Shown piece after piece: positions 4,406 to 64,000 of a stretch of DNA of 64,000 nt; position 1 is the first letter of the stretch, and each line of letters begins with the position of its first letter. Below the pieces are notes generated by a model. The model was not told the DNA's origin. It saw nothing but the letters and a program-made list of their open reading frames with translations, and did not search any database. A program made the position numbers and the translations under genes. Origin of the DNA: Candidatus Iainarchaeum sp. (GTDB lineage Archaea; B1Sed10-29; WALL01; JAGHAM01). The stretch lies in the NCBI GenBank assembly GCA_021161465.1, contig JAGHAM010000023.1:8895-72894 (forward strand). The letters run 5' to 3'.

Positions 4406-4424
4406 AATTTAACCTCCTGAAAAA

Positions 4425-26600: not shown

Positions 26601-29600
26601 AAACCCTGCCAACCAACTACAAGAAATTCAAGCTGATATTCCAATTCGGCAACACAGCGGGAGAGACTATAAATGCAAAACTTGTCCTGGATGCAAAGGA
26701 CAAGAGCCTATCATTTACCAATGTAACAGTAGATGGTGAATCCAACCCGGGAACAGGCACATACATACAAACTACTGAATTCGAAGTGCCATCAAGTGGT
26801 GCTGAAGTTGTGATAGAAGGAGAGGGAACAACCCAATCAACAAGCAACATGGACATATACTTCTGGGAACAAGACACACCAAGGCCAGACACACCATGGG
26901 CAACCATAAGCTATGGTAAAATTGATTACTCTGCTAGCATTAAAGCGTACGAGAAAGGAGCTGTATTAAAAGGCGTCTCCGAGAATGCAGACGAGGTCAG
27001 AGTCTGGGTTTACAAGAGCGTTGATGATTCTGTATCCAGTATCGGAGGAGGTATTATCGAAGGGGACCATGTCAAGATAGCTTACGACAACAACTCAGTG
27101 ATTGAATGGGCGTCTTTAGAGCCATCTGGACCCTACTTTAAGTACGTAGTCCCTGAAGATAAACCAATCAGGGGAAAACTAACAGCAATCATCACGAGCT
27201 CGAAATTTGGCGAGATTGATGAAACACTAAGCTCGTCTTACGTCAGCTTTACACCGAAAAGCACAAACATAAAAGATTTCCTGAACATGAACTTGGTCTC
27301 TAACGAGGAGAAGACAAAAGATATAATAGTAGCCAGCCACTACAACGAGCCTCTTGATATGACCATAGGAAACATCCAAAAAGACGGATGGAAATTCTCA
27401 CTCGAAACAACTATATACTCACTAAAGCCGGGAACAGCAACAGTGTTCATGAAGAGAGAAACCCAGAAAGGGAGTGGCAAGGTAACCATACCTGCCAAAG
27501 GGAAGGCAGTAATTAAAGTTACCGCAAGCCCTGTTGACGTGAAGTGCAGGTACAACGAAACGGCCTTGCTCCAACTTGATGTGGAGAACGTCAGGAAGCC
27601 TTATGTGTATTCCTTTGCCTTAAACTGTACCAATGGCACTTCCGGCGTAAGTTATACTACTGCAGTACCGACAGACCATATAGTCAGGCTAGACATAGAC
27701 CCATCAACTGTCACGCGCTTTGATTGCTTTAACAATAGTGCTGAGAGTGGATTGGACACAGCGTACCTTTGCGACGCTGAGCAGTTTGGGGTGTCTCTGC
27801 TTGATGCAGCCTGGGCACTTTACACAGACGATTACTCTGTTGAACACTCTTATTTCTATTCACTTGGAAAAGATGAGTTAGGTCAGGAGGGGCTATCACA
27901 AATTCTCAGTAGGTATGGGGACAAATTTGAGATAAGCCATGTATACAACAGTGAGGACTCTGCCAAAGCTACAAAAACTACAGACATAGTCCTAGATGGA
28001 AAAGCTGGTTGTGGCATCAATAAGGTAGTCCTAACTAAGATAAACCATGATGAAGACATCAGGATAACTATAACAACTAACAGCAGTGTTCCATGGTGTG
28101 GTAGAGCAGCCCACGCCTATTTGATAGGCCTGCTAAACTACGACCAGAACTTAAGGCCTACCCTCGGAAAATACTACTCGTTCGATACAAGCATGGAGGG
28201 TGAAAATGTAATAGATGCAATACAGTACGCTAAGAAACAGGGCAACTCCATATCGAACACAATGTTATTCAGCTATGGTTCTGCCGGTGAAAGTTATTCT
28301 GCCCAAACCATAGTCAATGCAAGAGCTGGTGGGAGACCGCAGAGTTACATAAAATACAAAGACTGCGAAATCATGTCCGGCACTGATTGCCCAATATTTG
28401 CGATTAACTTCTTTACAACCCTGAAAGAACCAATAATAGGTTACTTTGATATAGACAACAAGGACGACATACATGTTGGTTTGGTATACGACAGGAGCGA
28501 GATTACCACTGAAGGTGCGGGGAACCAGCTGGACACCTACCGGGCATTATTCATAACCCGGCTCTTGGATTATGCTGTTTCTGGGAATATGGGCCAGGGC
28601 ATATGGATTGGCTCCAACAACAGCCAGATGATTTACATCCCAACGAAAGACACAAGCCAAAATATTGTTGACTTAAGCCCTGTTACGCAAAGAGTTTTGG
28701 TTTATGGTAAGAATTACTATGATGTGGAAAATGAGGAAATTACAGGTAACAGGAGCGTCCACGTGCACATAGACATAGATGACGAACCGCGCTATTGTGT
28801 CGTTGGCAACCTCAAACCAGATGGAACTATAACTGATTCGCAGGAAGAAACACCCGTATTCCAACCAAACAGCAAAGACTGGCCATATGGTATTGATGTA
28901 TTTGACTGGACATTACTACCTGGCAATGGAAGAAAACGGGTTGTAGCTTACTGTATGGATAAGAATGGTGTCACTTCCAGGATAAGTGTGGGTGAGATTC
29001 TACTTGACACTACAGGTATGCTAGTGTTCAGGGGCGAGCAATATCCAAATACACTCAGCATGTACAAACCAATGATAACTAAAGACCTGTTTTATCACTT
29101 TATCGTGATGAATAAATATGGAGAAACTACCAAATGCTGGATGGAATACAAGGATAAAGAGTATATGACAGAAGGGGAGATTAGCTTAGGTACTGCACCG
29201 GAGGATAAAAACATATGCAACAACGGTCAGAACGACAACAGTCCAATTCCTGGAGTCTCAGATAACTGGCAGATAGATGATGGCTGCTGCTATCCTGTAG
29301 GTGGAAATTCAGGAAATGTTGAGGGCAGCGGAACAGAAAAAACATACTTCTTCAATATGCAGGAATTCACCTGCAACAGCCCGATAGTTGAAACGGAAAA
29401 CGAGGAGATTCCTGTAGAGATATGGTGCATGAACAGCTTAGGGCAAAAGAAAAAATTAATTGATGTTAACTTATACAGGCAAAGCACCGACGCACCAATG
29501 TTTGTTCTACCGGGGGACTTTACATTCTCTGTAAATGGAACCTACGAAAACGGTGTTATGACCAGCAACTATGGAGGTCAAGGGTTATACTTTGACAGGA

Positions 29601-31669
29601 ACATTGTATGGAACTCAACCGAAAATGGACTTGAAGACACCTGGCACCCCCTACAACTTAACAAAGAAATAGAAACGGGAATAGGCCTAAAAATCACTAA
29701 AAGCGTTGGCAAGAATGATGTCATGATACATGATAAACCAGACCTTGAAGGAGATTGGGAAGATGAACTCACAAAGGAGAGCGATAAGGTATATACACTC
29801 AAATTCATAGCTAGTGATAATGATGGTGTTGGCTCATGTATAGCAAGAATCCAACACAAAACAGATGGGAGTTATTACCTAAAATCATGCAAAGTAGTAG
29901 AGAAACTTGGGACAACTACCCCAAAGAAGGTTATATACTCTTGCCCGATGGAGCTACTGGAAGGTCCAAATGACATTACAATCAACTGCACAGACTTAAC
30001 TGGAAAAACCAATACAGGTAGATTCACGGTCACTCTAGACGAACAAGGCCCAGAGATAGTGAAAGATAGCATAAAAGTGGGTAAGTATGGGAACATAGAC
30101 GAACAAGGTACAAGAGTAAGAGCCCCAGACATAAACTTCACAGTCAAGGATGACTACTCTAAACCAGTTGAATGTAATTTGACCATCCCGCCTGCAGAGA
30201 TTTACAAGAACAATGGCTATAACTTTTTAACAACAACATATGAGTGTGAGCTAACACCAACTGGCGACCACACTGTGCTCGCCGAGTGCACAAGCCCAGA
30301 CTTCTCTGTGCTGTTCGTTAATCTTGACCCAAGCACGTGGGGGTTCTCATGCAATGATTCTCTCGGAAACGTGAGAAAGCAAGATGTGTATATGCCAAAA
30401 GGGTTGGGTGAGGAGGCTCCATCCATACTACAACTGAAGGATGACATAATGGAAGCCTGCAAGATAATAAGATACAAAAGAAGTCAACAGTACATAGAGG
30501 ACAAAGGTTTCATAGACCTAGGAGAAAATGGTTCAGTTGAGGTCCGTGATGGCGGCCAGATAGACAGGGATGGTATCCTTATGGAGATATACTACAAGAA
30601 CGACGGGAAGAGTGTAACTAGGAAAGACTTAGCTAGCCATATGAAATCACTTAATATTGATGCAGGTGTGCCAAGAGCCGCTTCCTGCTCAAAGCAAGCT
30701 GTTTGTGGAACCTCAATTGACTTAGTGCTAAAATATGCCACTGCAAACGTTGGTTCGACGATAGTGAATAAAGAAGTGGCAGAACAAGCTGAGAAGCAAC
30801 AGAAGGGATTGATTAGGAGAATATTCTCTGAATTGTATCAAAAAATAACAAAGAAAACAACTGAAGAAGTTAGTAGTGAAGTAACAGAAAAAGCAATTAA
30901 AGGTATGAAGATGCGGGCAGGGAAGGTACTCAAAGGAAGTATGAGTGCAGAGAAATTTGCGAAAAAATTCAATAAAGAATCTGTTGATGAAATTGTAAAT
31001 TTCTTTAAGAAGAATCCAGAGAAATATAAAGATTTGATAATTTCTAGTAAAAAAGATGTGAATGGGCTACCAAAACTGCTGGCCAAAGGAGAGTATAAGA
31101 CAGCAGGAATTACATTGGCAGGCATTGCAAAGAATGTCCCTGAAGCATCACCTATACTGGTAAAAGGCTTTGGAACAACATCACCTGAGGTAGCTACGAA
31201 GGCCATAGAAAGAATGTCAATGGCCATAACTAAGGAGGGTGTAGGCAAATGGTTCGTGAAGATGCTTATCATAGATGACATAAGTCGTATGCTACCTAGG
31301 GCGATTGCCGGAGATTATGCAAAGTATCTCACAGGTATAGAAGAAACACTTGATTCAAGGTTCCCAGGAGACCTGACAGATGGTGACTGTGACACTTCTT
31401 ATGACTTCTGGTCAAAAGTTGGTGCTAACATTGATGTCTTCCCACTCATTGGAGATTATGTAAAGGCGTTCACTCCAGACCCGTTCCAAACAGTGGTGTG
31501 CAGTCCAAAGAAACTGGAAGGGGGAAGATTGTATATAATTAGTGTGAAAGGGGCACAGGTCAACTTGGATTCCAAAGAGATGCCAACATGGGCACAGGTC
31601 ATGGGCAAGTGCTTTGACTCATGTGCAGACTACCAGTGCTCGGTAACAATCGTCGAGGAGAAGAAGTGA
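23636..31669 (+). CDS. giant (2677 aa) N-terminally membrane-anchored surface protein, paralog 1
   Basis: A single uninterrupted ORF. The N-terminus has a roughly 45-aa cytosolic segment (EIYAKIEDKYYAFLDYLQKRGIPVYSVIDPIE) followed by a TM helix (LPLLVGLLILILGLAYY). The large ectodomain is rich in T/N and N-glycosylation sequons. A/T box (AAAATATATATATTCAT) upstream. Confidence 0.75.
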   Translation: MQMGIDEIYAKIEDKYYAFLDYLQKRGIPVYSVIDPIEHAGIPSLPLLVGLLILILGLAYYTTAGPVGEDVTLTITSNGVAVTDAQVKALLDGTTIKSVVSRNGEAILSGLPPNKNITITIDKPGCALWSKTITPSEINDLNPQLQCESAIYSCLDISSDMVTAYVQDKDSIPPTSCEVRVHPRSNPSTSIAVGWKVENGVLHIEDPSQDNCPSKDDYVAILCDNGDYNNTISGLLSDIKLKGSITLTTTQPPEKPNATELPKIHIHVQSDTGHPLDGIIVKAVDAQCNDRASDFANAVLQAATGPNGDATLQIPNGQDFYLAASDKSGVYNEYCNSDDKYTSSLDMEAKNITIVMRVGSGTKIEVRESGTQEPIPGALVTVKDETGRSVGTPILTDSSGEANFVLYTGKSYTVEVRHRAYELIKDTVTGGEDAYIYMDPVDITQTGNLELTTVKAYGTKDRLGGVTVQLVRNDTVYAEIKTDRSGYYLLTNVVAGDYQTKVLPPGGVNYQSGPDVTIAPQNTTKTTIEVKPEKVTLSVITYVEMGGKKLRKQNVKVEMWDARYDEKIEEKTSGIERKVDFTVDKCSEVYFVLSYAENEGPYAGKKYGPLTSDPETYCGSREIKDLVLKEKPDQTTVSLTVTTPQGDEVDQLIPGNHYNALLEVALPEYTKKNTYNQVDVEMFVGETGSLLNTERTPVIIGTVGLQDLATQDPYISDVFKSDDYSFGQQPSREETGPSKYIKITITKYTPGTYVARIPLYVRKLADYETTKISYKATWVPPKGNSICSEEGCLWTRNSYQIVPEGTPQLYGLDSGAFYAYKAWLTASKNGSPITIDTPITQDAYFYLHINATARSDITSWGVKFETIPEIAEPIAYEGTIYRASGATTEITSTGLTGYTITNDKDIYALHSDDQLLLTVTMKAVSPGRCSLVPFNDLAHSLSFKVSEVPLLKKETLIAGVTATLQAKSLFEKGQDYAKDLWASYDVENETLPTNYKKFKLIFQFGNTAGETINAKLVLDAKDKSLSFTNVTVDGESNPGTGTYIQTTEFEVPSSGAEVVIEGEGTTQSTSNMDIYFWEQDTPRPDTPWATISYGKIDYSASIKAYEKGAVLKGVSENADEVRVWVYKSVDDSVSSIGGGIIEGDHVKIAYDNNSVIEWASLEPSGPYFKYVVPEDKPIRGKLTAIITSSKFGEIDETLSSSYVSFTPKSTNIKDFLNMNLVSNEEKTKDIIVASHYNEPLDMTIGNIQKDGWKFSLETTIYSLKPGTATVFMKRETQKGSGKVTIPAKGKAVIKVTASPVDVKCRYNETALLQLDVENVRKPYVYSFALNCTNGTSGVSYTTAVPTDHIVRLDIDPSTVTRFDCFNNSAESGLDTAYLCDAEQFGVSLLDAAWALYTDDYSVEHSYFYSLGKDELGQEGLSQILSRYGDKFEISHVYNSEDSAKATKTTDIVLDGKAGCGINKVVLTKINHDEDIRITITTNSSVPWCGRAAHAYLIGLLNYDQNLRPTLGKYYSFDTSMEGENVIDAIQYAKKQGNSISNTMLFSYGSAGESYSAQTIVNARAGGRPQSYIKYKDCEIMSGTDCPIFAINFFTTLKEPIIGYFDIDNKDDIHVGLVYDRSEITTEGAGNQLDTYRALFITRLLDYAVSGNMGQGIWIGSNNSQMIYIPTKDTSQNIVDLSPVTQRVLVYGKNYYDVENEEITGNRSVHVHIDIDDEPRYCVVGNLKPDGTITDSQEETPVFQPNSKDWPYGIDVFDWTLLPGNGRKRVVAYCMDKNGVTSRISVGEILLDTTGMLVFRGEQYPNTLSMYKPMITKDLFYHFIVMNKYGETTKCWMEYKDKEYMTEGEISLGTAPEDKNICNNGQNDNSPIPGVSDNWQIDDGCCYPVGGNSGNVEGSGTEKTYFFNMQEFTCNSPIVETENEEIPVEIWCMNSLGQKKKLIDVNLYRQSTDAPMFVLPGDFTFSVNGTYENGVMTSNYGGQGLYFDRNIVWNSTENGLEDTWHPLQLNKEIETGIGLKITKSVGKNDVMIHDKPDLEGDWEDELTKESDKVYTLKFIASDNDGVGSCIARIQHKTDGSYYLKSCKVVEKLGTTTPKKVIYSCPMELLEGPNDITINCTDLTGKTNTGRFTVTLDEQGPEIVKDSIKVGKYGNIDEQGTRVRAPDINFTVKDDYSKPVECNLTIPPAEIYKNNGYNFLTTTYECELTPTGDHTVLAECTSPDFSVLFVNLDPSTWGFSCNDSLGNVRKQDVYMPKGLGEEAPSILQLKDDIMEACKIIRYKRSQQYIEDKGFIDLGENGSVEVRDGGQIDRDGILMEIYYKNDGKSVTRKDLASHMKSLNIDAGVPRAASCSKQAVCGTSIDLVLKYATANVGSTIVNKEVAEQAEKQQKGLIRRIFSELYQKITKKTTEEVSSEVTEKAIKGMKMRAGKVLKGSMSAEKFAKKFNKESVDEIVNFFKKNPEKYKDLIISSKKDVNGLPKLLAKGEYKTAGITLAGIAKNVPEASPILVKGFGTTSPEVATKAIERMSMAITKEGVGKWFVKMLIIDDISRMLPRAIAGDYAKYLTGIEETLDSRFPGDLTDGDCDTSYDFWSKVGANIDVFPLIGDYVKAFTPDPFQTVVCSPKKLEGGRLYIISVKGAQVNLDSKEMPTWAQVMGKCFDSCADYQCSVTIVEEKK

Positions 31670-31713
31670 AGGTCGCTACGAAAAAGGGTCTCTTGCATCT
31701 TTGCCAAGCAAAA

Positions 31714-31724
31714 CTTTAAATAAT
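31714..31724 (+). promoter_or_regulatory. TATA-box-like element (CTTTAAATAAT) about 21 nt upstream of the start of giant protein 2
   Basis: A/T box at the spacing expected for a leaderless archaeal transcript. Analogous boxes lie upstream of 9645, 11915, 18038, 18716, 23636 and 38849. Confidence 0.35.
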
Positions 31725-31744
31725 CCTATTTGGTATTCTAAATC

Positions 31745-34700
31745 ATGGCACTTGTAGATATTTACCATCAAATAGAGGACAACTACTATTTCTTCCTTGA
31801 CTGGCTAGATGAAAAAGGAATTCCGATATACAACGTAGTTGACCCAATAGAAGCAAAAGGCATCCCAACGTTCCCACTTGCTGTTGGGATGGTGCTTCTA
31901 ATCCTCTTGCTATTGCTATCCTTAATAATAGGTATGGGCACTCAAGCAAACATGAACGTGAATGTAACCGTTACCACCAATGGCAATGCGCTGGCAGATG
32001 CCTCTGTTGTAGCCATCCAGGATGGGGAAGAAGTGAGTATAAAAACTACAGGTGATGACGGAAAAGTTTCACTCACAATTCCAAAAGCAGAAACGAGAAT
32101 AAACGTAACCGCAGAAGGGTGCCAATCTCAGGAGAAGGAGATAAATGAATCCGGGAACCTGAGCTTTGAACTAACATGTGGGGGAAAACCTGCTGGTTGC
32201 ATACCTATTTCAGCAACCATAAGCATGGTCAGGCTGACTGGTGATGACAACAAAGCACCGAAGAACTGCCACGTAACTATCTTAGATGATAAGGGAGACC
32301 CAACAGGTATAGAATGGCGCGTTGATGGCTCAAAGTTGTATCTTCCTGACCCTGATAAATATTGTATTAAGGAGAATTACACTGTCCAGATTTCATGTAC
32401 TGGGTACAAGCTGGTTGACACAGGAAAAAACATTATGAGTGAAATAAATGGGATGGGTGAGCTTGAGTTGCCATCAACAACTACACCTCCTGAGGACAAG
32501 TGTGCTCTTGGAGAAGAATGGAATGAAACTCTTGGGAAATGTGTAGAGAAACCAGTTACATGTCCAACTGGTGAGAAATGGGACAGCACATTAGAGATGT
32601 GTATTCCAGAACAAGTTGATGACGAGTATTCAATATATGTCATTGTAAAGAACAACAACACAGCCTTGTCTGGGATTCTTGTGACTGCCATAAGCTCATC
32701 TGGAAGTCAGTTAACAGAAGGCACCACCCAGGATTATACAGATAATGCTGGCAAGGCAGAGCTGTCCCTGAAAAAAGGCCAGAAGTTTAAGATAAAAGCA
32801 GAAGATGAAGCAGGAAAGTATTCTATGGTCATAACCAAAGAGTATACCGCTGACGCCACAAAAACCATCAACATCAGCATGCCAAAGGGAAGCCAGACTA
32901 CAATAAGGGTTATTGACAAGGAGACAAAGGAAAGCATTCCTTCTGCAACTGTCCTGCTCTACAAGGGGACTGAGGCATACGCAGCATTTACTACTGATAA
33001 AAATGGAAAAGTTGGTCTGACACTGCCTCCAGGAGTAACATATACCGCTTATGCATATGCCAATGGCTACAAGACCGATAAAGGCACAATCGCCGCTGGA
33101 AGCGCCATTACAATAAGCCTCCAGAAGGTATATGCACTTGAAGCAGGTAACCTAACGCTAAAAGCAGAAAATGCTTTGGACGGAAGCTCTATGGAAGGTG
33201 TTACATTCAGAATTTTCTCAAAGATTGGTAACGTGCCTTATGGTGGGTGCATCACAGGCTCAGATGGCAAATGTGCCATTTACTCCCTGCCAGAGGGCAG
33301 TTATTCTGTATACGCAACACCAAAGGGCAGTTACGATGAAGAGGACGTAGGTTCAGTTGATGTAAAGCATGGGGAAACAGTAGAAGAAACAATTAAGATT
33401 TACCCCTCCACGTTCAAATTAACGGTTTACACATGGCTGAACGGTGGCACCCCTAAGAGATGCGCGTCTGGGGCACATGTCACAATTGGGACTACAAATG
33501 ACATAGGTGTAAGCACCGAGCTAAACGACAGCTACACTGACAACAATGACTGCAAAGCAGAGTTCCATGTTTATAAGGGTCAGGATATCTGGATAAAGGC
33601 AACCTACACAGACGGTGGAAACATTCTCAGGGCAAGTGCCACATACACAGTAACTGGAGAAAAAGAAATAAACCTGATACTAACGCAACCAACAGCTAAT
33701 GTCTCGTTCAGCATGGGCGCGCTGGATATGGCTCCTGGTGATGTAAAGACCGGGACGCTATCCTTTGGTCTCCCATATTATGACAGCGACGGAACCAGGT
33801 ATAAAAACATTGAAATTAAGCTATGGGTTGGTGAAGAGGGGGATACTACAGACGCAGTAAAAACACCAGTCATGATAAACGGTTTTGAAGACTCTAACAT
33901 GCAAGGTGCTGCTGTATACGGGTACAAGAACTACCCGGGGACCACCATAGTTAGCGATACAAGCGGCGAGTACCTGAAATACCTTAAATTTGTAATCAGC
34001 AACAGCTCCGCTTACTACTCCAACAACATCAATACTTCTGTTAACGTGCCGATAAAGTTGAAAGCAAAAAATGCTTTTGAAGCCGACCAAACAATAGTCC
34101 ATGTGAGGGGTAAGTGGACCCCACCAAAAGGAAATCCAATAACTGCCGACTTTGATTTCAGGATAAATCTAACAGCGGGTACAAGCTGGTGCATGCTCCC
34201 TGGCGGAAGTGATTTCAGTGCATTTAAGGCCGGCTTCACGATAACCCCTGATGACAACGAGAGCCACTGGGAAGAGCATATGAGCACCACGAATGGCTCG
34301 GAATTCTACCTTAACATAAGAGCGATAGCCGCCAAGCAGCTTGACAGTTATAAGATAAACATGAAAACCCAGCCATCATATGGGTATTCTGTACTGAAGC
34401 TACTTCAATACTTCATTGGAAAGAATAGCCCACCAACAAATTACAAAGATGTAAACGAAGATGTATCTAGTAGTGGTATGGACCTAGAACCTGCTGACGC
34501 CTCAAAGGGTCTAGGTGACTTATATCAGTTAAACCAGGATGATGAAATCTCTTTGAGAATCAAGCTGAAGGCAATTCACAACGCAACTGGTACCAACTGG
34601 ATAAAACTATTCGATGATGAATCATGCAAGAAATCTTTTGAAATACGGGATGTGACCAACAAACCTACACCACTGCCAAACGTCACGGTTGAGGAGCACT

Positions 34701-37700
34701 ATTTCGTACAAGTTTGTCCACCAGAAGGTTACACAGGAACTATATGTAGATGGGGAGAAAGTGATGCCGATAAAATTGATAACCAGGAACTGGAACTCCC
34801 AACCTACTCGGCAGTATATGGCGAGGGCAGGAACTTTAGCATAAATCTTACCTTCAACAATATCGGTAGCACACCTGCAAACGTCCACATTGAAGCTGTA
34901 GATTCTGTGGGGGGCATAAGCTCATTGCATACGCCAGCAGATTTCACCATCCAGCCAAATAACCAGACAGAAGTTAACATAACTGGAAAGGGCGCTTCTG
35001 CCCAAGCAGGCACGATTAAATTGTACTTGTCCACATCGGCTAATGGCGCTAAAACACTATGGAGAACTATAAAGTATGGACCAGTTGACTATAACATAAC
35101 CTTGTGGGCAAATGCCTCTATCAGCGCTGGCGGAAACGAGCTGAAGGAAGAGTTAGTCAAACAAATAGACAGCGTAAAAGTGGTAGTATTCAGAAACAAC
35201 AATCCCACAACAGGCATAACAAACAATGGAAAAGTAGAATTCAATTACATCGACCCTGTGAATGGGCAGACCACTAAGGAGCTAAGAGGGGTGGATAATT
35301 ATTACATCTTTAACCATGACGCTATGAGTATCACAGCAGGGGATAGGAGTGCTGAAGTACATGTGGAGTATGGTGAGTTCGGAGGCCTAACAAAAGGTTA
35401 CCCCGTGCAGGGGATGGAGGTAACACCAGACGGAACGAGGTTCCCAGCTGATGGAGATTACACGCTGAGTGTGACCAATCTTAGAGAATCCAAGGTTGTG
35501 GGTGTGAACTCATCATGGCTCAGGTCTGCTAACTTTACACTGGATATCACCGGGTTTGATGTAGACAATGCTAAAAACAGAGGGTATGACACAATGATAC
35601 AAGTTTTCATCTACAACAGCACCAATGACCTTGTGAATACAATAACTCCAGATGGTGTCGTGAACATAACCCTGCCTGCCAAGGGAAGAGCGGACATAAA
35701 TGTCACCGTGGGGCTTTTGGAGAACAAGATATCAGCCTGCATCCAGGAACCATTCGTTGGAGAGATAAAGGTAACCCCCTGTTACCAGGACACAAAAACA
35801 TATGAATTCCATTATAGTTGTGCTGAGCTTGTTAGATACCAGCCAGCTAACAGGAAAGTTGAGTACATATTCACAAAAGACAACACAAGCTATACCGAGA
35901 GCCCTGCAATAACAGTGACCTCACTAGCTAACAAAAACCTGAATGTATTATTTGGATTCGAAAAGTATAACTCATGGTTAGACACATCATTCGAAAACTT
36001 TGAAATTAATATAACTACATTCTATCAGAATGGTGCAAAAAAGCAGACGTGCTCCCTAAATACCGAACATGATGGAACTATCAAGTGCGAGTTACCTCCA
36101 AACGGTACAGCGCAGGTGTCCATAAAGGCGAGTATAGATCCTGATAATCCGCCTGAAAAAGGAGACCTTTACATATCTTATCTACATATAACCCCAGATA
36201 GATGGCTTGAAGAGAACTTCACTTTGACGTTTAGTTATAGCGAAACTGGGGAGTACATATCCAAGTACACTGTGCATAGGGACACACATGAACCATTAGA
36301 CATAACCAAAGAAGAGGTAATAGATAATGATAATGTCTGCTGGTTTGGTGCTGGCCATTACACTTTATGCGATAGCACACAACTCTCGAAAGTTATCGAC
36401 GTTATTGGTAAACACATAAATGCGAACGGAGGGCTATTAAGGAAAGAATTTGCATTCGGGAATGATATCGCCACCATTAGCACAATCCAAACAATTGCTG
36501 GAAGCCAGGTGAAGGAAACTGAAGACGGCGCATCATATGGCGATATCGTGGTCAACATATTGACACGAGATAAGAAGATAACCTGTGGTGTGGTAACCAT
36601 AACCGCACAACAGGTAGGGGGGTTAACGCGTGTCAATATAACTGTGGATAAAAACCAACCATGGTGCGATAATGGGGAGGAACCCTTCCTATTCACTGGA
36701 TTAGCTAATTACGACGAGGATTTAGCTGAGAGCACAGGCGCGCCAGTGAAATTTATGAGGTTTGATGGAGACGCTACCGAGTTAAGCAAATTCAGGGATG
36801 CATTTGAGTACATAGACCCAGATTACATCCCAGTAGTCTTTGGATATGCTTATGCTAATGGGGAGGTATTTGATACTGGCAGTGAGAACCCGCCAATAGT
36901 GGTCCACTACAAAGAGTATAATTGCTCAGGGACGCCACCCGAAGGAACCAACGACTGCATAGACCTACCATCGTACTTACAATTCATCTATCGGGATTTC
37001 TACAACAATCCCGACTCACCAGATGGTGTAGGGTACTTTAGTTATCAGTATATAAGTACAACAGAGACAAATAATTTCTTCGTAGGTATAGCATACAAGA
37101 AGGCAATGGACGAAAGCGAACTAGACGAGCTGAGGAGGATACTGGCAAGCAACTTGATAAGCTACTGGACTATGGGAAACACATCTTGTATACAAGATAA
37201 CACAGGTGAGTTAATAGGAGAAAATTTAAATGGCAAAGTTTGCTCGATGATTGGCAAATTACCAAGAGGTGAGGGTGCCATAGACCTTAAAACCTTTGAC
37301 CCTACCAATAGAGGGTTTAAAGACTCAACTGGGAGCGATGGCAAGATTGGGCTGAACCTTACATTCGGTTCAGGTACAGTGTCATGTAGGATATGGAACA
37401 ACTGTGGTTCAAATACCTGTAAAAACGAAACCCTGATAAAAGGAGTAAATTGGGATAAGGATAACACCTATGTAGAAGTGCCTGACTGGACTGTCCCAAC
37501 AGATACTGGAGGAGGGAAACAGATTAAAGCAGAGTGCTATTCTGGTGGATACAAGGGTACTGGTGACCCTGTTTCTGCCGTCGTAGTTGTCGACAAAACA
37601 GCACCTACAGTCAGTGAAGATGAAAACTGTGACAGCGAGCCATGCTTTGAGGAAGGAGATGACCATGACCTGACATTCACAGCCACTGATAAGTATGGTA

Positions 37701-38404
37701 TAGCTTCATGCGAAGCATTTAGGGTCTATAGCGACGGTTCAGTTACACCATTAAGCTGTGGGCGTATAGGTGATTCAGATAGATTCAGGTGCTCTGGTAT
37801 AGAAAAGCCGCCAGAAGGCCAGTACCACCAGTATCCATCAGAGTACTCAGGTGACTGCGGTTCGTACCACCTATCAAGTGATGGGAGGGCGTGTCTTGAC
37901 ATAATAAACTACACCTGCACAGACAAGAATGGGAATACCGCGGAGGATAGGCAGATAAAAATCTTCTGGGGAGAGAGTAGTATTGAGGTACATGTAAAAG
38001 AGATTTACTCCCAGCTTATCAACTTAGCTAATAATGGTGTGGTAGAATACGGAAAGGTGGAACCAATTGAGTCTGGTAAAGCTGTTGTATACAACACAAT
38101 AACCAAAAATGGAGATACTCAATCTGTACCTGTGTACTACACAAGTTCAACTGAAAACGTGATAAAGTTCAACATCACTGGGAAATTTGGCATTAGCGAC
38201 CTTAGTTGCGATGACGCACATATCATAGGGCCTAATAGCGATGAGCTCACTCCCTCACAAGACCACGACTCAGCACCAGGATGGAAAGACTATACACTAG
38301 ATTTCAACCTGGAAAGCGAAGGTGAGTATGTTGTGAATATAACTTGCATAGGAAATGGGAATTACGAGGATACGCCCTCTATGAAAGTGCCCGTAAAAGA
38401 ATAG
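31745..38404 (+). CDS. giant (2219 aa) N-terminally membrane-anchored surface protein, paralog 2
   Basis: N-terminus MALVDIYHQIEDNYYFFLDWLDEKGIPIYNVVDPIEAKGIPTFPLAVGMVLLILLLLLSL is clearly homologous to the N-terminus of the 23636 gene. It shares further internal motifs with it (W.PPKGN; ...PWC...L.NYD.(N/D)L). ACTTTAAATAAT box about 22 nt upstream. Confidence 0.75.
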   Translation: MALVDIYHQIEDNYYFFLDWLDEKGIPIYNVVDPIEAKGIPTFPLAVGMVLLILLLLLSLIIGMGTQANMNVNVTVTTNGNALADASVVAIQDGEEVSIKTTGDDGKVSLTIPKAETRINVTAEGCQSQEKEINESGNLSFELTCGGKPAGCIPISATISMVRLTGDDNKAPKNCHVTILDDKGDPTGIEWRVDGSKLYLPDPDKYCIKENYTVQISCTGYKLVDTGKNIMSEINGMGELELPSTTTPPEDKCALGEEWNETLGKCVEKPVTCPTGEKWDSTLEMCIPEQVDDEYSIYVIVKNNNTALSGILVTAISSSGSQLTEGTTQDYTDNAGKAELSLKKGQKFKIKAEDEAGKYSMVITKEYTADATKTINISMPKGSQTTIRVIDKETKESIPSATVLLYKGTEAYAAFTTDKNGKVGLTLPPGVTYTAYAYANGYKTDKGTIAAGSAITISLQKVYALEAGNLTLKAENALDGSSMEGVTFRIFSKIGNVPYGGCITGSDGKCAIYSLPEGSYSVYATPKGSYDEEDVGSVDVKHGETVEETIKIYPSTFKLTVYTWLNGGTPKRCASGAHVTIGTTNDIGVSTELNDSYTDNNDCKAEFHVYKGQDIWIKATYTDGGNILRASATYTVTGEKEINLILTQPTANVSFSMGALDMAPGDVKTGTLSFGLPYYDSDGTRYKNIEIKLWVGEEGDTTDAVKTPVMINGFEDSNMQGAAVYGYKNYPGTTIVSDTSGEYLKYLKFVISNSSAYYSNNINTSVNVPIKLKAKNAFEADQTIVHVRGKWTPPKGNPITADFDFRINLTAGTSWCMLPGGSDFSAFKAGFTITPDDNESHWEEHMSTTNGSEFYLNIRAIAAKQLDSYKINMKTQPSYGYSVLKLLQYFIGKNSPPTNYKDVNEDVSSSGMDLEPADASKGLGDLYQLNQDDEISLRIKLKAIHNATGTNWIKLFDDESCKKSFEIRDVTNKPTPLPNVTVEEHYFVQVCPPEGYTGTICRWGESDADKIDNQELELPTYSAVYGEGRNFSINLTFNNIGSTPANVHIEAVDSVGGISSLHTPADFTIQPNNQTEVNITGKGASAQAGTIKLYLSTSANGAKTLWRTIKYGPVDYNITLWANASISAGGNELKEELVKQIDSVKVVVFRNNNPTTGITNNGKVEFNYIDPVNGQTTKELRGVDNYYIFNHDAMSITAGDRSAEVHVEYGEFGGLTKGYPVQGMEVTPDGTRFPADGDYTLSVTNLRESKVVGVNSSWLRSANFTLDITGFDVDNAKNRGYDTMIQVFIYNSTNDLVNTITPDGVVNITLPAKGRADINVTVGLLENKISACIQEPFVGEIKVTPCYQDTKTYEFHYSCAELVRYQPANRKVEYIFTKDNTSYTESPAITVTSLANKNLNVLFGFEKYNSWLDTSFENFEINITTFYQNGAKKQTCSLNTEHDGTIKCELPPNGTAQVSIKASIDPDNPPEKGDLYISYLHITPDRWLEENFTLTFSYSETGEYISKYTVHRDTHEPLDITKEEVIDNDNVCWFGAGHYTLCDSTQLSKVIDVIGKHINANGGLLRKEFAFGNDIATISTIQTIAGSQVKETEDGASYGDIVVNILTRDKKITCGVVTITAQQVGGLTRVNITVDKNQPWCDNGEEPFLFTGLANYDEDLAESTGAPVKFMRFDGDATELSKFRDAFEYIDPDYIPVVFGYAYANGEVFDTGSENPPIVVHYKEYNCSGTPPEGTNDCIDLPSYLQFIYRDFYNNPDSPDGVGYFSYQYISTTETNNFFVGIAYKKAMDESELDELRRILASNLISYWTMGNTSCIQDNTGELIGENLNGKVCSMIGKLPRGEGAIDLKTFDPTNRGFKDSTGSDGKIGLNLTFGSGTVSCRIWNNCGSNTCKNETLIKGVNWDKDNTYVEVPDWTVPTDTGGGKQIKAECYSGGYKGTGDPVSAVVVVDKTAPTVSEDENCDSEPCFEEGDDHDLTFTATDKYGIASCEAFRVYSDGSVTPLSCGRIGDSDRFRCSGIEKPPEGQYHQYPSEYSGDCGSYHLSSDGRACLDIINYTCTDKNGNTAEDRQIKIFWGESSIEVHVKEIYSQLINLANNGVVEYGKVEPIESGKAVVYNTITKNGDTQSVPVYYTSSTENVIKFNITGKFGISDLSCDDAHIIGPNSDELTPSQDHDSAPGWKDYTLDFNLESEGEYVVNITCIGNGNYEDTPSMKVPVKE

Positions 38405-44958: not shown

Positions 44959-47250
44959 ATGAAAGGCGTCTTAATTGATGTGGAGAGCGATAACCACATT
45001 ATAAAACTCTTCATAAAGGATACCGAAACAGGGAAAGTTGAAGAGGTAGTGGATAGCTCGTTCTACCCTTATTTCTACCTGCTTGGAGTGGATGAGGAAG
45101 ATGCAAAAAGCCTTGGGGAAGGGCTGAGAGGAATTGAGAGGAGCAAGGGCGCCCTGAAGATAATCGCTGAAAAGCCATCTGATGTTCCATACCTGAGGGA
45201 AAAAGCAAAAGAGATTGGTGAGATACGGGAATATGACATACCATATACTCAGAGGTATCTCATAGACAAAGGTCTGAAGCCCATGAAGCGCTACGAATGG
45301 GTTCTTGATGGGAACAAGCTCATCTCCTTTAAAGAGGATGTAGGTAAGTGGTCTGTAAGCAGGAAAGCTTTTGACATAGAAACCTATAACCCCCAAGGCA
45401 TGCCAAGGCCGTCACAAGACCCTGTTATAATGGCTTCCTTCTGGAATGAGGAACTGGGGAAGGTCATCACATGGAAGCCAGCAAAGGCTAGCTTCGTTGA
45501 GATGGTTGAAGACGAGAAGCGGCTTATAGCCAGGATAACTGAAGAGATAAACTCGGCAGATGTAATTTATACTTATAATGGAGACAACTTTGACCTGCCC
45601 TACATAAAGAAACGCGCTGACAACTATAAGATACCAACAGCCATAGACTTAAGGCGCGGGGGGCAAGGCACAAAAGCCAAGATAAGAGGAAAAATCCACT
45701 TAGATGCCTATCTTGGCGTTAATTTCCTAACAACTATAGGCTGGCTAAAGCTGCCGAGGTACAGACTGGAAGATGTATACAAGGAGTTCACTGGAAAAGA
45801 AAAGCTAGATATGGAGGTAACGGACCTTTGGAAGGACTGGGAGAACGGCACTATAGACAAGGTGACTGACTACTCGCTCCAGGATGCCGAGGCCGCATAT
45901 GTCATAGGCGAGAGACTGCTTCCCCTGTATGTGGAGTTCTGCAAACTCGTTGGGCAAACCATGTTTGATGTTTCAAGAATGAGCGCCTCCCAGATTGTTG
46001 AGCTGTTGCTACTGAAGAAAGCATTCCACAAGAAACAGATAGCCCCAAACAAGCCGACAGAACACGAGTTCGTATCGAGGATAAGAAAGCCAATAAAAGG
46101 GGCGTTCGTGAAGCAGCCCGAACCCGGGCTTCACGAGAACTTAGCCATCCTTGACTTCAGGTCTCTGTATCCCTCCATTATAATAAGCCATAATGTAAGC
46201 CCTGAAACCCTCAACTGCGAGTGCTGCAAAGATGATGGATATGTATCGCCAAACGGTTACCGTTTCTGCAAGAAAAAACGTGGCATAATTCCTGAGATGC
46301 TTGAGGAACTGTTAAGCAAGAGAGTTGAAGTGAAAAAACTGCTTAAGTCAACCAAGGACCCCGAAGAGAGGAAAAGGCTGGACGCAAAACAACAGGCTTT
46401 GAAGATAACAGCAAACGCCACTTATGGATACACACTGTTTGCAAGAGCGCGCTGGTATTGCAGAGAATGTGGTGAGGCCATAACAGCATGGGGAAGGCAC
46501 TACGTCCAGAACCTAATATCCCAGGCCGAAGAAACTGGGTTTAAAGTGCTTTACGCCGACACGGATTCCTGCTTCCTTGAGCTAAGGGATAAGACCAAAG
46601 AAGATGTGATTAAATTCCTCAAGGACTACAACAGCAAGCTACCGGAGGCCATGGAACTCGAGCTTGAAGGCTTTTACCCCAGAGGGATTTTTGTAACTAA
46701 GCGCGAGGGAGGGGCAGCCAAGAAGAGATACGCCCTTATACGCGAAGACGGGCAGGTAGAGATAACCGGGCTTGAGTTTGTTAGGAGGGATTGGAGTGGG
46801 CTTGCCAAAAAAACCCAGGAGAAAGTCATAAGGGCCATACTCGAGAACAAGATTGGAAAGGCCAAAGAGGTAGTTATGGACACGATAGATGCAATCAGGG
46901 AAGGAAAAGTGCCACTGGATGACCTAGTGATATACACGCAAATTAAGCGGAAGATAAGCAAATATGACGCTATTGGCCCCCATGTCAAAGCAGCAAAACG
47001 GCTTGAGGAAAGCGGAGTTAAAGTAGAGCCTGGTATGACGATAGGATATGTAGTGACGCAGGGAGCAGGCAATATAGGTGACAGGAGTTATCCTCCTCAG
47101 TTGATTGGAAACAGGAAACCAGATGTAGACTACTACATAAACAACCAGGTGCTACCCGCAGTTATGAAGATACTGTCAGAAGTAGGGATAAAAGAAGATG
47201 ATTTAAAGATAGGTGGGAAGCAAAGCGACCTTGGCCAATGGGTTGGCTAA
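44959..47250 (+). CDS. polB: family B DNA polymerase
   Basis: Exo I FDIETYN, Exo II YNGDNFDLPY, Exo III YSLQDAEAAY. Pol motif A DFRSLYPSIIISHN, motif B KITANATYGY, motif C YADTDS. 763 aa with no intein-sized insertions. Confidence 0.95.
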   Translation: MKGVLIDVESDNHIIKLFIKDTETGKVEEVVDSSFYPYFYLLGVDEEDAKSLGEGLRGIERSKGALKIIAEKPSDVPYLREKAKEIGEIREYDIPYTQRYLIDKGLKPMKRYEWVLDGNKLISFKEDVGKWSVSRKAFDIETYNPQGMPRPSQDPVIMASFWNEELGKVITWKPAKASFVEMVEDEKRLIARITEEINSADVIYTYNGDNFDLPYIKKRADNYKIPTAIDLRRGGQGTKAKIRGKIHLDAYLGVNFLTTIGWLKLPRYRLEDVYKEFTGKEKLDMEVTDLWKDWENGTIDKVTDYSLQDAEAAYVIGERLLPLYVEFCKLVGQTMFDVSRMSASQIVELLLLKKAFHKKQIAPNKPTEHEFVSRIRKPIKGAFVKQPEPGLHENLAILDFRSLYPSIIISHNVSPETLNCECCKDDGYVSPNGYRFCKKKRGIIPEMLEELLSKRVEVKKLLKSTKDPEERKRLDAKQQALKITANATYGYTLFARARWYCRECGEAITAWGRHYVQNLISQAEETGFKVLYADTDSCFLELRDKTKEDVIKFLKDYNSKLPEAMELELEGFYPRGIFVTKREGGAAKKRYALIREDGQVEITGLEFVRRDWSGLAKKTQEKVIRAILENKIGKAKEVVMDTIDAIREGKVPLDDLVIYTQIKRKISKYDAIGPHVKAAKRLEESGVKVEPGMTIGYVVTQGAGNIGDRSYPPQLIGNRKPDVDYYINNQVLPAVMKILSEVGIKEDDLKIGGKQSDLGQWVG

Positions 47251-48914: not shown

Positions 48915-49239
48915 CGGACCCGGAGGGAATTCCACTCGCAAAGGAGAAGGGCTTATAAGGAACACATAACGCCCTTACTGCTTTCCATCCCATTAAGGGA
49001 AGGGGCTGATAAGGGGGAACCGTAGGTGCCCCTTATTTTGAACCCCCGATCTTCTGGTTTCTCCCCCTCTCATTAAGAGAGGTACTAGAACCATAAGTTC
49101 TGATACCATCACCCAAAGGACGCGCTAAGGGAGGACTGGAACACAAATTCCAATCCTACCTTAAATCCAAGGGATGTATCGGAACCGTAGGTTCTGATGT
49201 CCGAAGCCAGATGCCTTATCCTAGCTAGGCTACGGGCCC
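48915..49239 (-). tRNA. tRNA-Arg (anticodon TCG) with long anticodon-loop intron and T-loop intron (about 325 nt)
   Basis: Minus strand: GGGCCCG-TA-GCCT-AGCTAGGATA-AGGC-A-TCTGG-CTTCGG(A)-[about 140-nt intron]-CCAGA-AGATC-GGGGG-TTCAAAA-[about 110-nt intron]-CCCTC-CGGGTCC-G. All stems are complementary, with GU pairs. Confidence 0.45.
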
Positions 49240-54370: not shown

Positions 54371-54423
54371 GGCTTATTATTTGAAAGAAAGAATATAAAT
54401 AACAAACCAGAAAATAATCCCAT

Positions 54424-54690
54424 AGCCCCGTAGTGTAGTGGACAATCATATCGGACTCTGGACATCAGAACCTACGGTTCCGATACCTCCCTTAAGGTTT
54501 TAAGGTAGGGTTGGTTCCGATACCTCCCTTGACGGTAGATAAAGTATATCTCCTGTGATGGGGGTGTAGAAGCAGTTGTTCTGGAGTAACTCTGGAACTC
54601 TTGATGCCTCTCTCAATTGATGAGAGAAATCCGATGACAGCGGTTCGAAAGAAGGGTTTTACCCCATCAACGAAATTCCGCTCGGGGCTA
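54424..54690 (+). tRNA. tRNA-Gln (anticodon CTG) with roughly 167-nt anticodon-loop intron and roughly 26-nt T-loop intron
   Basis: AGCCCCG-TA-GTGT-...-TCGGA-CTCTGG(A)-[intron 54463..54629]-TCCGA-TGAC-AGCGG-TTCGAAA-[intron]-CCGCT-CGGGGCT-A. The acceptor, anticodon and T stems are all complementary. Confidence 0.5.
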
Positions 54691-54695
54691 TTAGT

Positions 54696-54877
54696 GGACC
54701 CGTGGTCTAGTCTGGTTTAGGACATCAGCTTCACAGATTCCGTCGGCGCGCAGGGCAAAGCACGAGAACGATGGAATTGAGAGCGCTGGGGATCCCCGGT
54801 TCAAAAAAAGGAAGGGAGACACATTCCCCCTCCCCTTATAAGCCCTCCTCCTTTGGAGGTGAACATCCGGGCGGGTC
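54696..54877 (+). tRNA. tRNA-Val (anticodon CAC) with anticodon-loop intron (about 48 nt) and T-loop intron (about 60 nt)
   Basis: GGACCCG-TG-GTCT-AGTCTGGTTTA-GGAC-A-TCAGC-TTCACA(G)-[ATTCC...GGAATTGAGAGC]-GCTGG-GGATC-CCCGG-TTCAAAA-[intron carrying the GGGAGACACATTCCCCCTCCCC hairpin]-CCGGG-CGGGTCC-A. It starts only 5 nt after tRNA-Gln. Confidence 0.5.
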
Positions 54878-54985
54878 CACTATAGGAGTTACAACTCTGC
54901 TACCATTACATGGGGGGATAATTGACATATACTATATCAGGGGTAACAGGAAATCTTAAATTCACTGCAAAAGATAAAAACTTCA

Positions 54986-60665: not shown

Positions 60666-60956
60666 GCTCCCGTAGTCTAGTCCGGTTAACCACGAACCGC
60701 AAAATCCGTTCATGCTTTGTGTGATTGCTACGCAATCACACTGTTGGCAGGACGTAGCTGCTCTCTGGGAACAATCCCTTGCAGTAGCAATTTGTGGTAC
60801 GGAAAAGGATAAGGGCCTCTCGAGGCTTTCCTTGATATCTAAGGAAAGCCAAGGAAAGCCCTAGACCCGGGTTCAAAATAAGGGAGGGGGACACATTCCC
60901 CCTCCCCTTATAAGCCCTTCCCCTTTGGAAGAGCATGAACAGTCCCGGCGGGAGCA
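60666..60956 (+). tRNA. tRNA-Glu (anticodon CTC) with three introns (D-loop, anticodon loop, T-loop; about 291 nt)
   Basis: GCTCCCG-TA-GTCT-AGTCCGGTT-[about 140-nt insertion]-GGAT-A-AGGGC-CTCTCG-[intron GGCTTTCCTTGATATCTAAGGAAAGCC...]-(A)GCCCT-AGAC-CCGGG-TTCAAAA-[intron with the GGGAGGGGGACACATTCCCCCTCCCC hairpin]-CCCGG-CGGGAGC-A. The D-region parse is the least certain. Confidence 0.4.
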
Positions 60957-63085: not shown

Positions 63086-63535
63086 ATGACAGACCAGATA
63101 GAATTCTTCGCGCAGTATGGCAAATGGGTTGCAGTGAAAAAGCTGAAAATTGAAAACCAATCAAAGGCAGAAGTAGCGCGCTTCCTAGCAAGCGTGCACG
63201 AGAGCATAGATAGGAAAATGTGGGAGTTCCTTGATGAGGATATCCCATTAGGGGCTTTGGACGAGATAGCTGTTGAGATAACCGGGGCAACTAGAAAAGG
63301 CAAGAAATGGGTAACGCCGCGATTGAATGAGGAAAGGACTATCGAAATCATGGCAAGGCTAAGGAGCACGGGAACCACGAGAAAAATAAAACAACACGTT
63401 AAAAGCAAAGAACTGGTTGAGCTCGCGAAAATTTACCTAACCAGGCGCGCGCTTGAGATGATTGGGGTCAACCTGGAGCCAGACCCAAAGGTTATTGAGA
63501 AGTATACAACCAAAAAAGAACTTGGTGAAGTTTAG
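63086..63535 (+). CDS. hypothetical protein
   Basis: 149 aa, soluble, no recognisable motif. Confidence 0.4.
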   Translation: MTDQIEFFAQYGKWVAVKKLKIENQSKAEVARFLASVHESIDRKMWEFLDEDIPLGALDEIAVEITGATRKGKKWVTPRLNEERTIEIMARLRSTGTTRKIKQHVKSKELVELAKIYLTRRALEMIGVNLEPDPKVIEKYTTKKELGEV

Positions 63536-63675
63536 CCCCCTAACTCTGACAACCACAACTCCCTAAGTTCCTTCGTTTGCACAAAACCGTCTAGGACCTT
63601 ACCAACTATTGCTCGAGTGGCATTTATAAATCTTAGAAAGCAATTTAAAAGTTAAATGTAAAAGTATAGACGCAC

Positions 63676-63801
63676 GGGGTCGTAGGGTAGCCTGGACCAT
63701 CCTACGGGCTTTGGGAGTCTTTTCTGGACGCGCGGGTCAAGCCTGAGCAATGGAAAAGGCAAAAACAGCCTGTGACCGGAGTTCAAATCTCCGCGACCCC
63801 A
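63676..63801 (+). tRNA. tRNA-Gln (anticodon TTG) with about 53-nt canonical anticodon-loop intron
   Basis: GGGGTCG-TA-GGGT-AGCCTGGACC-ATCC-T-ACGGG-CTTTGG-[intron 63715..63767]-(G)CCTGT-GAC-CGGAG-TTCAAAT-CTCCG-CGACCCC-A. The cloverleaf is fully complementary. Confidence 0.75.
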
Positions 63802-63804
63802 CCT

Positions 63805-63956
63805 AAACTTCTTTGGGAAAGAAGTTTAATCAAGAAAAAGAAGGAAACTTCTTTGGGAAAGAAGTTTAATCAAGAAAAAGAAGGAAACTTCTTAGGAAGA
63901 AGTTTAATCCAGAAGGAAGGAAACTTCTGGAAAGGAAGTTTAATCAAGGAATCCAA
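63805..63956. repeat. four tandem copies of a roughly 40-nt unit containing the palindrome AAACTTCTTTGGGAAAGAAGTTT
   Basis: Units start at 63805, 63845, 63885 and 63921 (the last two are degenerate). There are no unique spacers between them. Confidence 0.8.
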
Positions 63957-63960: not shown

Positions 63961-64000
63961 GCAGGGGTTCCGGAGCGGTCAAACGGGCAGGACTTAAGTA
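63961..64000 (+). tRNA. tRNA-Leu (anticodon TAA), 5' part only (truncated by the window end)
   Basis: GCAGGGG-TT-CCG-GAGCGGTCAAA-CGG-G-CAGGA-CTTAAGT... matches the archaeal tRNA-Leu D-arm and anticodon loop. Confidence 0.5.

Follow-up and report, generated by a model that had tools for sequence, protein, structure and literature searches.

Organization of the tRNA-Gln and tRNA-Val genes

The stretch of archaeal DNA analyzed here (hereafter the window; 64,000 nt of contig JAGHAM010000023.1, Candidatus Iainarchaeum sp.) carries on its forward strand two adjacent tRNA genes, tRNA-Gln(CTG) at 54424-54690 and tRNA-Val(CAC) at 54696-54879, each of them interrupted twice, in the anticodon loop (position 37/38) and in the T-loop (position 59/60). 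The tRNA-Gln gene is composed of exon 1 (54424-54461, tRNA positions 1-37), intron 1 (54462-54628, 167 nt, 37/38), exon 2 (54629-54649, positions 38-59), intron 2 (54650-54676, 27 nt, 59/60) and exon 3 (54677-54690, positions 60-73). After the 5-nt spacer TTAGT (54691-54695), the tRNA-Val gene follows with exon 1 (54696-54735), intron 1 (54736-54783, 48 nt, 37/38), exon 2 (54784-54805), intron 2 (54806-54865, 60 nt, 59/60) and exon 3 (54866-54879), in which the discriminator A is included. CCA is encoded by neither gene.

A first-pass annotation of this region had described a tRNA-Gln(CTG) and a tRNA-Val(CAC) separated by 5 nt, with introns in the anticodon loop and in the T-loop of both, and this arrangement is borne out by the location of the exons and by ARAGORN, which called tRNA-Gln(ctg) and tRNA-Val(cac) once the introns were removed in silico. 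The span given for the pair, 54424-54877, begins at the right nucleotide, but it stops 2 nt before the discriminator base, which is at 54879. The intron of about 167 nt that it assigned to tRNA-Gln is exactly of that length, and the internal duplication that it noted corresponds to the 18-mer GGTTCCGATACCTCCCTT, found at 54476-54493 and again at 54513-54530; this intron is strongly structured, with a fold z-score of -4.2. The hairpin proposed for tRNA-Gln intron 2 exists, although it is weak (GGG...CCC). As described, the 48-nt intron of tRNA-Val is closed by a helix, which reaches 9 bp (ATTCCGTCG:CGATGGAAT), and the GC-rich hairpin listed for tRNA-Val intron 2 is present in the sequence.

Both genes thus yield a canonical cloverleaf after intron removal. 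In their unspliced form, the two were missed by ARAGORN and by Rfam, either at gathering thresholds or at E <= 10; the only Rfam match at permissive thresholds was one spurious long non-coding RNA.

Splice junctions

The junctions were scored for bulge-helix-bulge (BHB) motifs, taken as a 4-bp central helix (H) flanked by two 3-nt bulges, each cut after its second nucleotide, plus outer (h) and inner (h') helices. The two 37/38 junctions present the strict hBHBh' form. In tRNA-Gln, the central helix is CTCT:AGAG (4/4 pairs), the bulges are GG/A and AA/A (the slash marking the cut), h has 7 bp and h' is CATCAG:TTGATG, of 6 bp; in tRNA-Val, the central helix is TTCA:TGAG (4/4), the bulges are CA/G and AG/C, and h and h' have 5 and 9 bp. 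The two 59/60 junctions present the recognised relaxed form, hBH, in which the T-stem serves as the outer helix (5 bp in both) and there is no adjacent inner helix: the central helix is TTCG:CGAA (4/4) with a 3' bulge AT/T in tRNA-Gln, and TTCA:TGAA (4/4) with a 3' bulge CA/T in tRNA-Val. Removal of tRNA-Gln intron 2 restores the T-loop TTCGAAT, the same as in the orthologues described below. The first-pass annotation rightly called T-loop introns non-canonical; for the 59/60 position there is a precedent in ARMAN-2 (PMC3239211).

For tRNA-Gln, another parse, with a 16-nt intron, had been named as the one that would overturn this structure. In this parse, or in a version of it with 53 nt, a short intron is removed through a proximal TTCCGA copy, and the tRNA does not include the distal exons. 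It finds some ground in three occurrences of TCCGA (gene positions 56, 93 and 207), which forms the 3' strand of the anticodon stem; the first two of them fall within the duplicated 18-mer. However, the junctions made with the proximal copies pair only 1/4 and 2/4 positions of the central helix and have no inner helix, against 4/4 pairs, an h of 7 bp and an h' of 6 bp for the distal one. Besides, no T-arm or acceptor 3' strand follows the proximal copies, the sole CGGGGCT being at the distal end, and it is the distal product that agrees with all five orthologues. The short parse therefore fails, and the chance that it is correct is negligible.

Nested BHB motifs inside the 167-nt intron were also considered; a loose scan returned about 10 matches in 480 nt, of which just 2 are true junctions, and the others were treated as chance. 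A split or permuted arrangement was not found either, the exons being colinear, on one strand and within 184-325 nt.

Comparison with related genomes

Syntenic loci in relatives were reached through the flanking proteins. For loci L005 and L138, identity to the window is 68% in PolB and 76% in PyrB; PolB identity is 62% for L134, L139 and L140 (1.17-Mb contig), 56% for L136 and 55% for L137. The neighbouring LPG synthase, 65% identical in L141, was used as a marker in place of the flanking GT39 gene, for which no near homologues were found apart from the organism's own.

In the alignment of the spliced window tRNAs with five orthologues, cloverleaf pairing was kept in 96.8% of the cells for tRNA-Gln and 97.6% for tRNA-Val, with compensatory double changes at 7 pairs in each of them. 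The observed covariation score was matched by none of the shuffles, and sliding of the 3' partner lowered pairing to 52% or less. The introns themselves also have relatives: tRNA-Val intron 1 is homologous to the 44-nt intron of the L005 tRNA-Val, and its 9-bp inner helix stays fully paired in this comparison with three of the nine pairs changed.

As the sequence derives from a metagenome-assembled genome, a chimeric assembly could be invoked to explain such genes. The 615-nt intergenic region, however, is 100% identical in four contigs coming from two ENA assemblies and one JGI metagenome, and homologous introns occupy the same positions in related genomes; because of the identity among contigs from three assemblies, an assembly artefact can be ruled out for practical purposes.

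The gene order is also shared. The spacer between tRNA-Gln and tRNA-Val measures 5 nt in L139, 6 nt in L141, 69 nt in L136 and 89 nt in L137. In L005, the closest sequenced relative, the tandem is broken (4308-6947), with tRNA-Gln in opposite orientation at about 2.4 kb from tRNA-Val. The simplest reading of these sequences would be that the order Gln-then-Val is ancestral and that L005 was rearranged at this place.

A search of the window for complete tRNA genes, anchored on acceptor stem and T-arm, recovered five (Gln, Val, Arg, Glu and Pro), all called by ARAGORN after splicing and all interrupted; they contain 10 introns that sum to 819 nt, where the mature tRNAs sum to 374 nt, and T-loop introns are present in four of the five. 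The same genes in relatives are much poorer in introns. tRNA-Gln is intron-less in all five relatives compared (L005, L136, L137, L139 and L141), and tRNA-Val is devoid of a T-loop intron in four of these (L005, L136, L137 and L141), the L139 gene having a 45-nt T-loop intron and none at 37/38. tRNA-Glu is intron-less in L005, L136 and L139, as is tRNA-Pro in L005. For tRNA-Arg, an intron of 46-50 nt related to that of the window (family A, see below) is found in L005 and L134 and one of 16 nt in L137, with none in L136. Since the relatives carry zero or one intron in the same syntenic genes, most of the window introns are recent gains.

Taken together, tRNA-Gln(CTG) and tRNA-Val(CAC) are very probably functional archaeal tRNA genes, each with two protein-spliced BHB introns, and part of a lineage-specific burst, in a DPANN archaeon, in which introns were gained and became longer. 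Some points weigh against this interpretation. Splicing of the pair is predicted from the sequence, and the T-loop junctions, with no adjacent inner helix, require an enzyme that tolerates relaxed motifs. The window covers 64 kb of the genome, and intron-less second copies may exist elsewhere. Pfam scans of 20 open reading frames (ORFs) of the window found no EndA or RtcB gene, nor any other tRNA-processing gene, and no terminator was identified downstream of tRNA-Val. As for the direction of intron copying proposed below, from tRNA-Arg to tRNA-Gln, it depends on presence and absence in a few relatives and is tentative.

Alternatively, the genes might be taken as pseudogenes, inactivated by insertions that are never spliced, with functional copies outside the 64 kb covered. 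That the unspliced genes escape the standard detectors would fit, as would the length of the insertions, which is unusual when 167 nt is compared with the published 11-129 nt (PMC4090602). Nevertheless, the exon pieces are intact and colinear and give cloverleaves that covary with the orthologues, and each insertion lies at a BHB or hBH site with exact 3-nt bulges. All five complete tRNA genes of the window are interrupted, and they are the syntenic orthologues of genes that are single-copy in the relatives. Moreover, the exons of tRNA-Glu in the related contig L127 are 100% identical to those of the window, while the flanking DNA is just 65-74% identical. Inactivation is thus very unlikely.

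Other tRNA genes of the window

tRNA-Arg(TCG), on the reverse strand at 48915-49239, contains intron 1 at 37/38 (49200-49059, 142 nt) and intron 2 at 59/60 (49036-48929, 108 nt). tRNA-Glu(CTC), on the forward strand at 60666-60956, is interrupted in the D-loop (60688-60804, 117 nt), at 37/38 (60823-60856, 34 nt) and at 59/60 (60878-60942, 65 nt). Multiple introns are therefore found at 37/38 and 59/60 in tRNA-Gln, tRNA-Val and tRNA-Arg, and at these two positions plus the D-loop in tRNA-Glu. A fourth intron in tRNA-Glu, which would go beyond the published maximum of three, was considered and rejected, because no BHB forms at the second of the four presumed introns (H of 0-1/4), and the D-loop instead fits one 117-nt intron with an 8-bp inner helix. 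In L127 (832-1077), the introns of tRNA-Glu have about 15, about 20 and 135 nt. As the D-loop intron of L127 has only about 15 nt and the exons are identical, GGAT can be assigned to the 3' strand of the D-stem; the very different lengths of introns between identical exons also indicate that intron size changes very fast.

tRNA-Pro(TGG), on the forward strand at 63676-63801, has one 51-nt intron at 37/38 (63716-63766), and tRNA-Leu(TAA), which starts at 63961, is incomplete at the end of the window. ARAGORN also reported a transfer-messenger RNA at 63464-63803 (tag peptide ARGRRVAWTILRALGVFSGRAGQA), which overlaps tRNA-Pro(TGG) in an archaeon and is almost surely a spurious call. The gap between tRNA-Pro and tRNA-Leu(TAA) is filled, at 63805-63948, by a tandem array with 3.7 copies of the 40-nt hairpin-forming unit AAACTTCTTGGGAAAGAAGTTTAATCAAGAAAAAGAAGG.

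Intron families

The all-against-all comparison of introns defined two families, in which introns of different tRNA identities of the same genome are highly similar. Family A occupies position 37/38 and includes intron 1 of tRNA-Gln and intron 1 of tRNA-Arg, 91% identical over their first 53 nt (z = 31), which also have in common a GTGATGG motif and a 3' hairpin. Family B occupies position 59/60 and includes intron 2 of tRNA-Val and the third intron of tRNA-Glu, 92% identical over 50 nt (z = 32); intron 2 of tRNA-Arg holds a 22-nt family-B core at 95%, present twice. The 135-nt T-loop intron of the L127 tRNA-Glu holds this core two to three times. Each family pair scored above the maximum of 200 shuffles. 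The 18-mer duplication of tRNA-Gln intron 1 is a repeat of the family-A module, and a similar internal repeat is found in tRNA-Arg intron 1. In addition, tRNA-Gln intron 2 and the T-loop intron of the L139 tRNA-Val have the GGGTTTYACCCC hairpin in common (p = 0.002).

The core module of family A was also recognised in the tRNA-Arg introns of 46-50 nt of the relatives, with 88% identity over 26 nt in L005 and 30/32 identical nucleotides in L134. From these sequences, the simplest reading would be that family A was ancestrally in tRNA-Arg(TCG), was copied to tRNA-Gln(CTG) in the window lineage and grew there by internal duplication, and that the T-loop introns of family B spread within the lineage of the window and L127. 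The 3' end of the short L005 intron has a homologue inside the long tRNA-Arg intron, the 15-nt segment TTTGGGTGATGGTAT; a former 3' splice junction of tRNA-Arg may now lie within the long intron.

Other origins were considered. A collection of viral contigs had no exact match to either family core, so that a viral origin of the introns was rejected. The scan of a metagenome collection that does not cover the window's own JGI sample gave 49 matches to the family-B core, one of them a real copy (L127) and the others chance 18-21-mers. Copying of a segment with the 3' part of the gene and its trailer between tRNA-Val and tRNA-Glu was discarded, the likeness between the two trailers not being significant. 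The family-A module was also compared with tRNA 3' halves, as it could be a degenerate one: strict local alignment gave nothing at p <= 0.02, and a semi-global test gave nominal p values of 0.001-0.012, uncorrected over 40 tests, a weak likeness that arose only where copies from the window were compared with the 3' half of tRNA-Arg, with no signal from the shorter L005 and L134 introns.

It may be asked whether the long and conserved introns have a function beyond splicing, as stable circular RNAs, guide RNAs or protein-binding elements. The family-B core is identical at 50/52 positions between the window and L127, whose flanks are only 65-74% identical, and the family-A module is identical at 30/30 positions to sequences of L137 even though PolB is only 55% identical there. 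The strong fold of the tRNA-Gln intron and the hairpins of both families, which keep their pairing through compensatory changes, would agree with a function, for which the C/D-box RNA in the tRNA-Trp intron is a precedent (PMC4090602). On the other hand, neither a C box (RUGAUGA) nor a D box (CUGA) occurs in intron 1 of tRNA-Gln, tRNA-Arg or tRNA-Glu, in intron 2 of tRNA-Arg or tRNA-Val, or in intron 3 of tRNA-Glu, and no Rfam match was obtained even at E <= 10. Recent copying of a selfish element predicts high identity among copies equally well, and intron lengths vary freely between relatives. A role of the introns beyond being spliced out is therefore considered unlikely.

Transcription and processing

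A TATA-like box, TATAAATA, occupies 54394-54401 of the forward strand, some 26 nt upstream of the 5' end of tRNA-Gln, and is the presumed promoter of the pair. All-A/T 8-mers occur upstream of tRNA-Gln at -32 to -23, and tRNA-Gln, tRNA-Glu and tRNA-Pro each have such an 8-mer at about -34 to -23; no TATA-like box is seen upstream of tRNA-Val. We infer that tRNA-Gln and tRNA-Val are co-transcribed, which is supported by the absence of a box for tRNA-Val, by the boxes of tRNA-Gln, tRNA-Glu and tRNA-Pro and by the spacing kept in L139 and L141.

Based on this organization, a single dicistronic precursor would probably be transcribed from the TATA-type promoter upstream of tRNA-Gln. EndA would act on all four motifs, BHB or hBH, cleaving within the 3-nt bulges that flank the 4-bp helix. 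At 59/60, the T-stem would act as the outer helix, the intron would pair through its final nucleotides with T-loop nucleotides 54-57 and the 5' cut site would be located in a loop; this hBH form calls for an EndA of broad specificity, a class made up of the (alpha-beta)2 and epsilon2 types and an alpha4 type with the L3 loop. Exon joining, and probably circularisation of the introns, would follow through an RtcB-type ligase. The two tRNAs would be parted at the 5-nt spacer by RNase P and 3' processing, with CCA added afterwards. Splicing would probably precede the maturation of the ends, because the T-loop intron disrupts the T-arm that is recognised by the end-processing enzymes. As for the origin of the introns, their sequences would have been copied between tRNA genes at the same position, from tRNA-Arg to tRNA-Gln for family A and among tRNA-Val, tRNA-Glu and tRNA-Arg for family B, and then lengthened by internal duplication.

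Candidate precursor elements

The 30-nt core of family A, ATCAGAACCTACGGTTCCGATACCTCCCTT, appears verbatim and in opposite orientation in L137. The L137 copies lie at 2421-2450 and 19190-19218, outside introns: one of them abuts the ATG of a protein gene (30/30 nucleotides identical) and the other abuts the 5' end of tRNA-Val. Read as the reverse complement of the module, the L137 element is AAGGGAGGT-(A/C)TCGGAACC-GTA-GGTTCTGA(T/G), that is, AAGGGAGGT followed by a 9-bp hairpin, with a Shine-Dalgarno-like GGAGGT included and a compensatory change at the base of the hairpin. The presence of the module at these sites indicates a conserved hairpin element that is not confined to introns.

The same core resembles the 3' end of the archaeal small-subunit (SSU) rRNA (3' strand of helix 45 and anti-Shine-Dalgarno) at 19/24 positions, with a nominal p of about 0.001 for a likeness noticed a posteriori. 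From this likeness, one might speculate that the excised family-A intron RNAs have a function.

Direct repeats of the 3' end of the tRNA itself were found in two relatives. In L137, a repeat of 17 nt lies at 19277-19293 and 19381-19397, the second copy 104 nt downstream, and in L136 a repeat of 20 nt lies on the reverse strand at about 14637-14618 and 14436-14417, the second copy 201 nt downstream. Both start at about T-loop position 59, the sequence between the copies is hairpin-rich, and the L137 repeat already has the hBH geometry. By analogy with attachment (att) sites, att-like duplication of a tRNA 3' end could have been the origin of the introns at 59/60.

A bolder proposal is that the introns are copies of small, still-active and non-autonomous mobile hairpin elements, which make new BHB introns in this DPANN clade; we regard it as doubtful. 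If it is true, this clade shows the birth of archaeal tRNA introns in progress, and the mechanism of transposition becomes testable.

Other features of the window

Two adjacent very large ORFs, of 2677 and 2219 amino acids (aa), occupy 23636-38404. Their syntenic giant counterparts in relatives have just faint CarboxypepD_reg or PKD-like Pfam matches, and the ORFs may encode DPANN surface proteins. The PolB of the window (44959-47250, 763 aa) has no intein; in several close relatives, PolB has about 1190 aa and contains an intein with a LAGLIDADG domain (P0002, P0003 and P0039).

Relationship to known systems

The nearest named relatives of the window PolB belong to Diapherotrites and Micrarchaeota, with 45-50% identity, and the window's own proteins are named Candidatus Diapherotrites archaeon by NCBI; to judge from these proteins, the organism is a DPANN archaeon. 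Multi-intron tRNAs are known in Crenarchaeota, Korarchaeum, Nanoarchaeum, M. kandleri and ARMAN-1/2 (PMC4033280), with a published maximum of three introns per tRNA gene (PMC4033280, PMC8450103) and, as the highest density on record, 71 introns in 46 genes (PMC8450103). In DPANN, disruption of tRNA genes is associated with EndA variants that have an extra loop, and the existence of disrupted tRNAs that escape detection has been predicted (PMC5829648).

The closest parallel within DPANN is ARMAN-2 (Candidatus Micrarchaeum acidiphilum). It has an hBH intron at 59/60 in tRNA-Cys and introns at 53/54 and 59/60 in tRNA-Pro, cut by an epsilon2 EndA (PMC3239211), an enzyme of broad specificity (PMC3239211, PMC3488258). 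The window genes resemble the 59/60 hBH intron of pre-tRNA-Cys and the two-intron structure of pre-tRNA-Pro, and they would likewise depend on a broad-specificity splicing endonuclease, as their relaxed motifs suggest. Unlike ARMAN-2, the window lineage is labelled Diapherotrites by NCBI and its PolB is only 45-50% identical to those of Micrarchaeota; its introns reach 167 nt and are far longer, 4/5 genes have a T-loop intron, and the introns form families common to several tRNAs, which are not mentioned in the available part of the ARMAN-2 account (PMC3239211).

Shared intron families, or "intron transposition", have been described in Thermoproteales (PMC4033280, PMC4090602). According to Sugahara 2008 and Fujishima 2010, as summed up in later papers (PMC4033280, PMC4090602, PMC8450103), these archaea have up to three introns per tRNA, a high intron density and near-identical introns across tRNA identities, with fast lineage-specific gain implied, as in the window. 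They are members of TACK, whereas the window organism belongs to the DPANN superphylum; moreover, each window family is found at one position in the 64 kb (A at 37/38, B at 59/60), and gain is polarised here by intron-less syntenic orthologues. The window has 2.0 introns per gene, on five genes only, against the record genome average of 1.5 in P. calidifontis. Its longest intron, of 167 nt, compares with a range of 11-129 nt given in 2014 (PMC4090602).

In the model advanced with Caldiarchaeum subterraneum, tRNA introns are gained when mobile elements integrate into attachment sites in tRNA genes (PMC3293823). The tRNA 3'-end repeats of L137 and L136 resemble an att duplication as in that model (PMC3293823), and they begin at about position 59, the site of the window T-loop introns. 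Unlike the model, no integrase or larger mobile element is seen next to these tRNAs, and the window T-loop introns keep no recognisable copy of a tRNA 3' end, and the link is a putative one. A hypothesis of this kind, intron gain through mobile elements that integrate at tRNA attachment sites, is reportedly due to Randau and Soll. The euryarchaeal box C/D tRNA-Trp intron is comparable in being an unusually long and structured intron at 37/38; however, the long introns of tRNA-Gln, tRNA-Arg and tRNA-Glu have no C box, D box or Rfam match.

The phenomenon is thus already known in kind, and what stands out is the new lineage, the extreme load and length of the introns and the clean comparative evidence for their recent gain. 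With 167 and 142 nt in the window and 135 nt in L127, intron length is at or past the known extremes, and local density, at 2.0 introns per gene for five genes, is past them; the upper length known for BHB tRNA introns, 129 nt by the 2014 figure, rises to 167 nt. Shared intron families are extended beyond Thermoproteales. The multi-intron genes all escaped ARAGORN and Rfam, so that under standard annotation members of this DPANN clade would seem to lack essential tRNAs, which is the annotation gap for disrupted DPANN tRNAs anticipated earlier (PMC5829648).

The locus represents a well-polarised natural experiment, in which the same syntenic tRNA genes have zero, one, two or three introns in related genomes and intron lengths shift several-fold while the exons stay identical. 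To our knowledge, the mechanism of archaeal tRNA intron transposition has never been established. With the candidate precursors found in the relatives, the hairpin element and the att-like repeats of tRNA 3' ends, the way in which introns are gained could become open to test.

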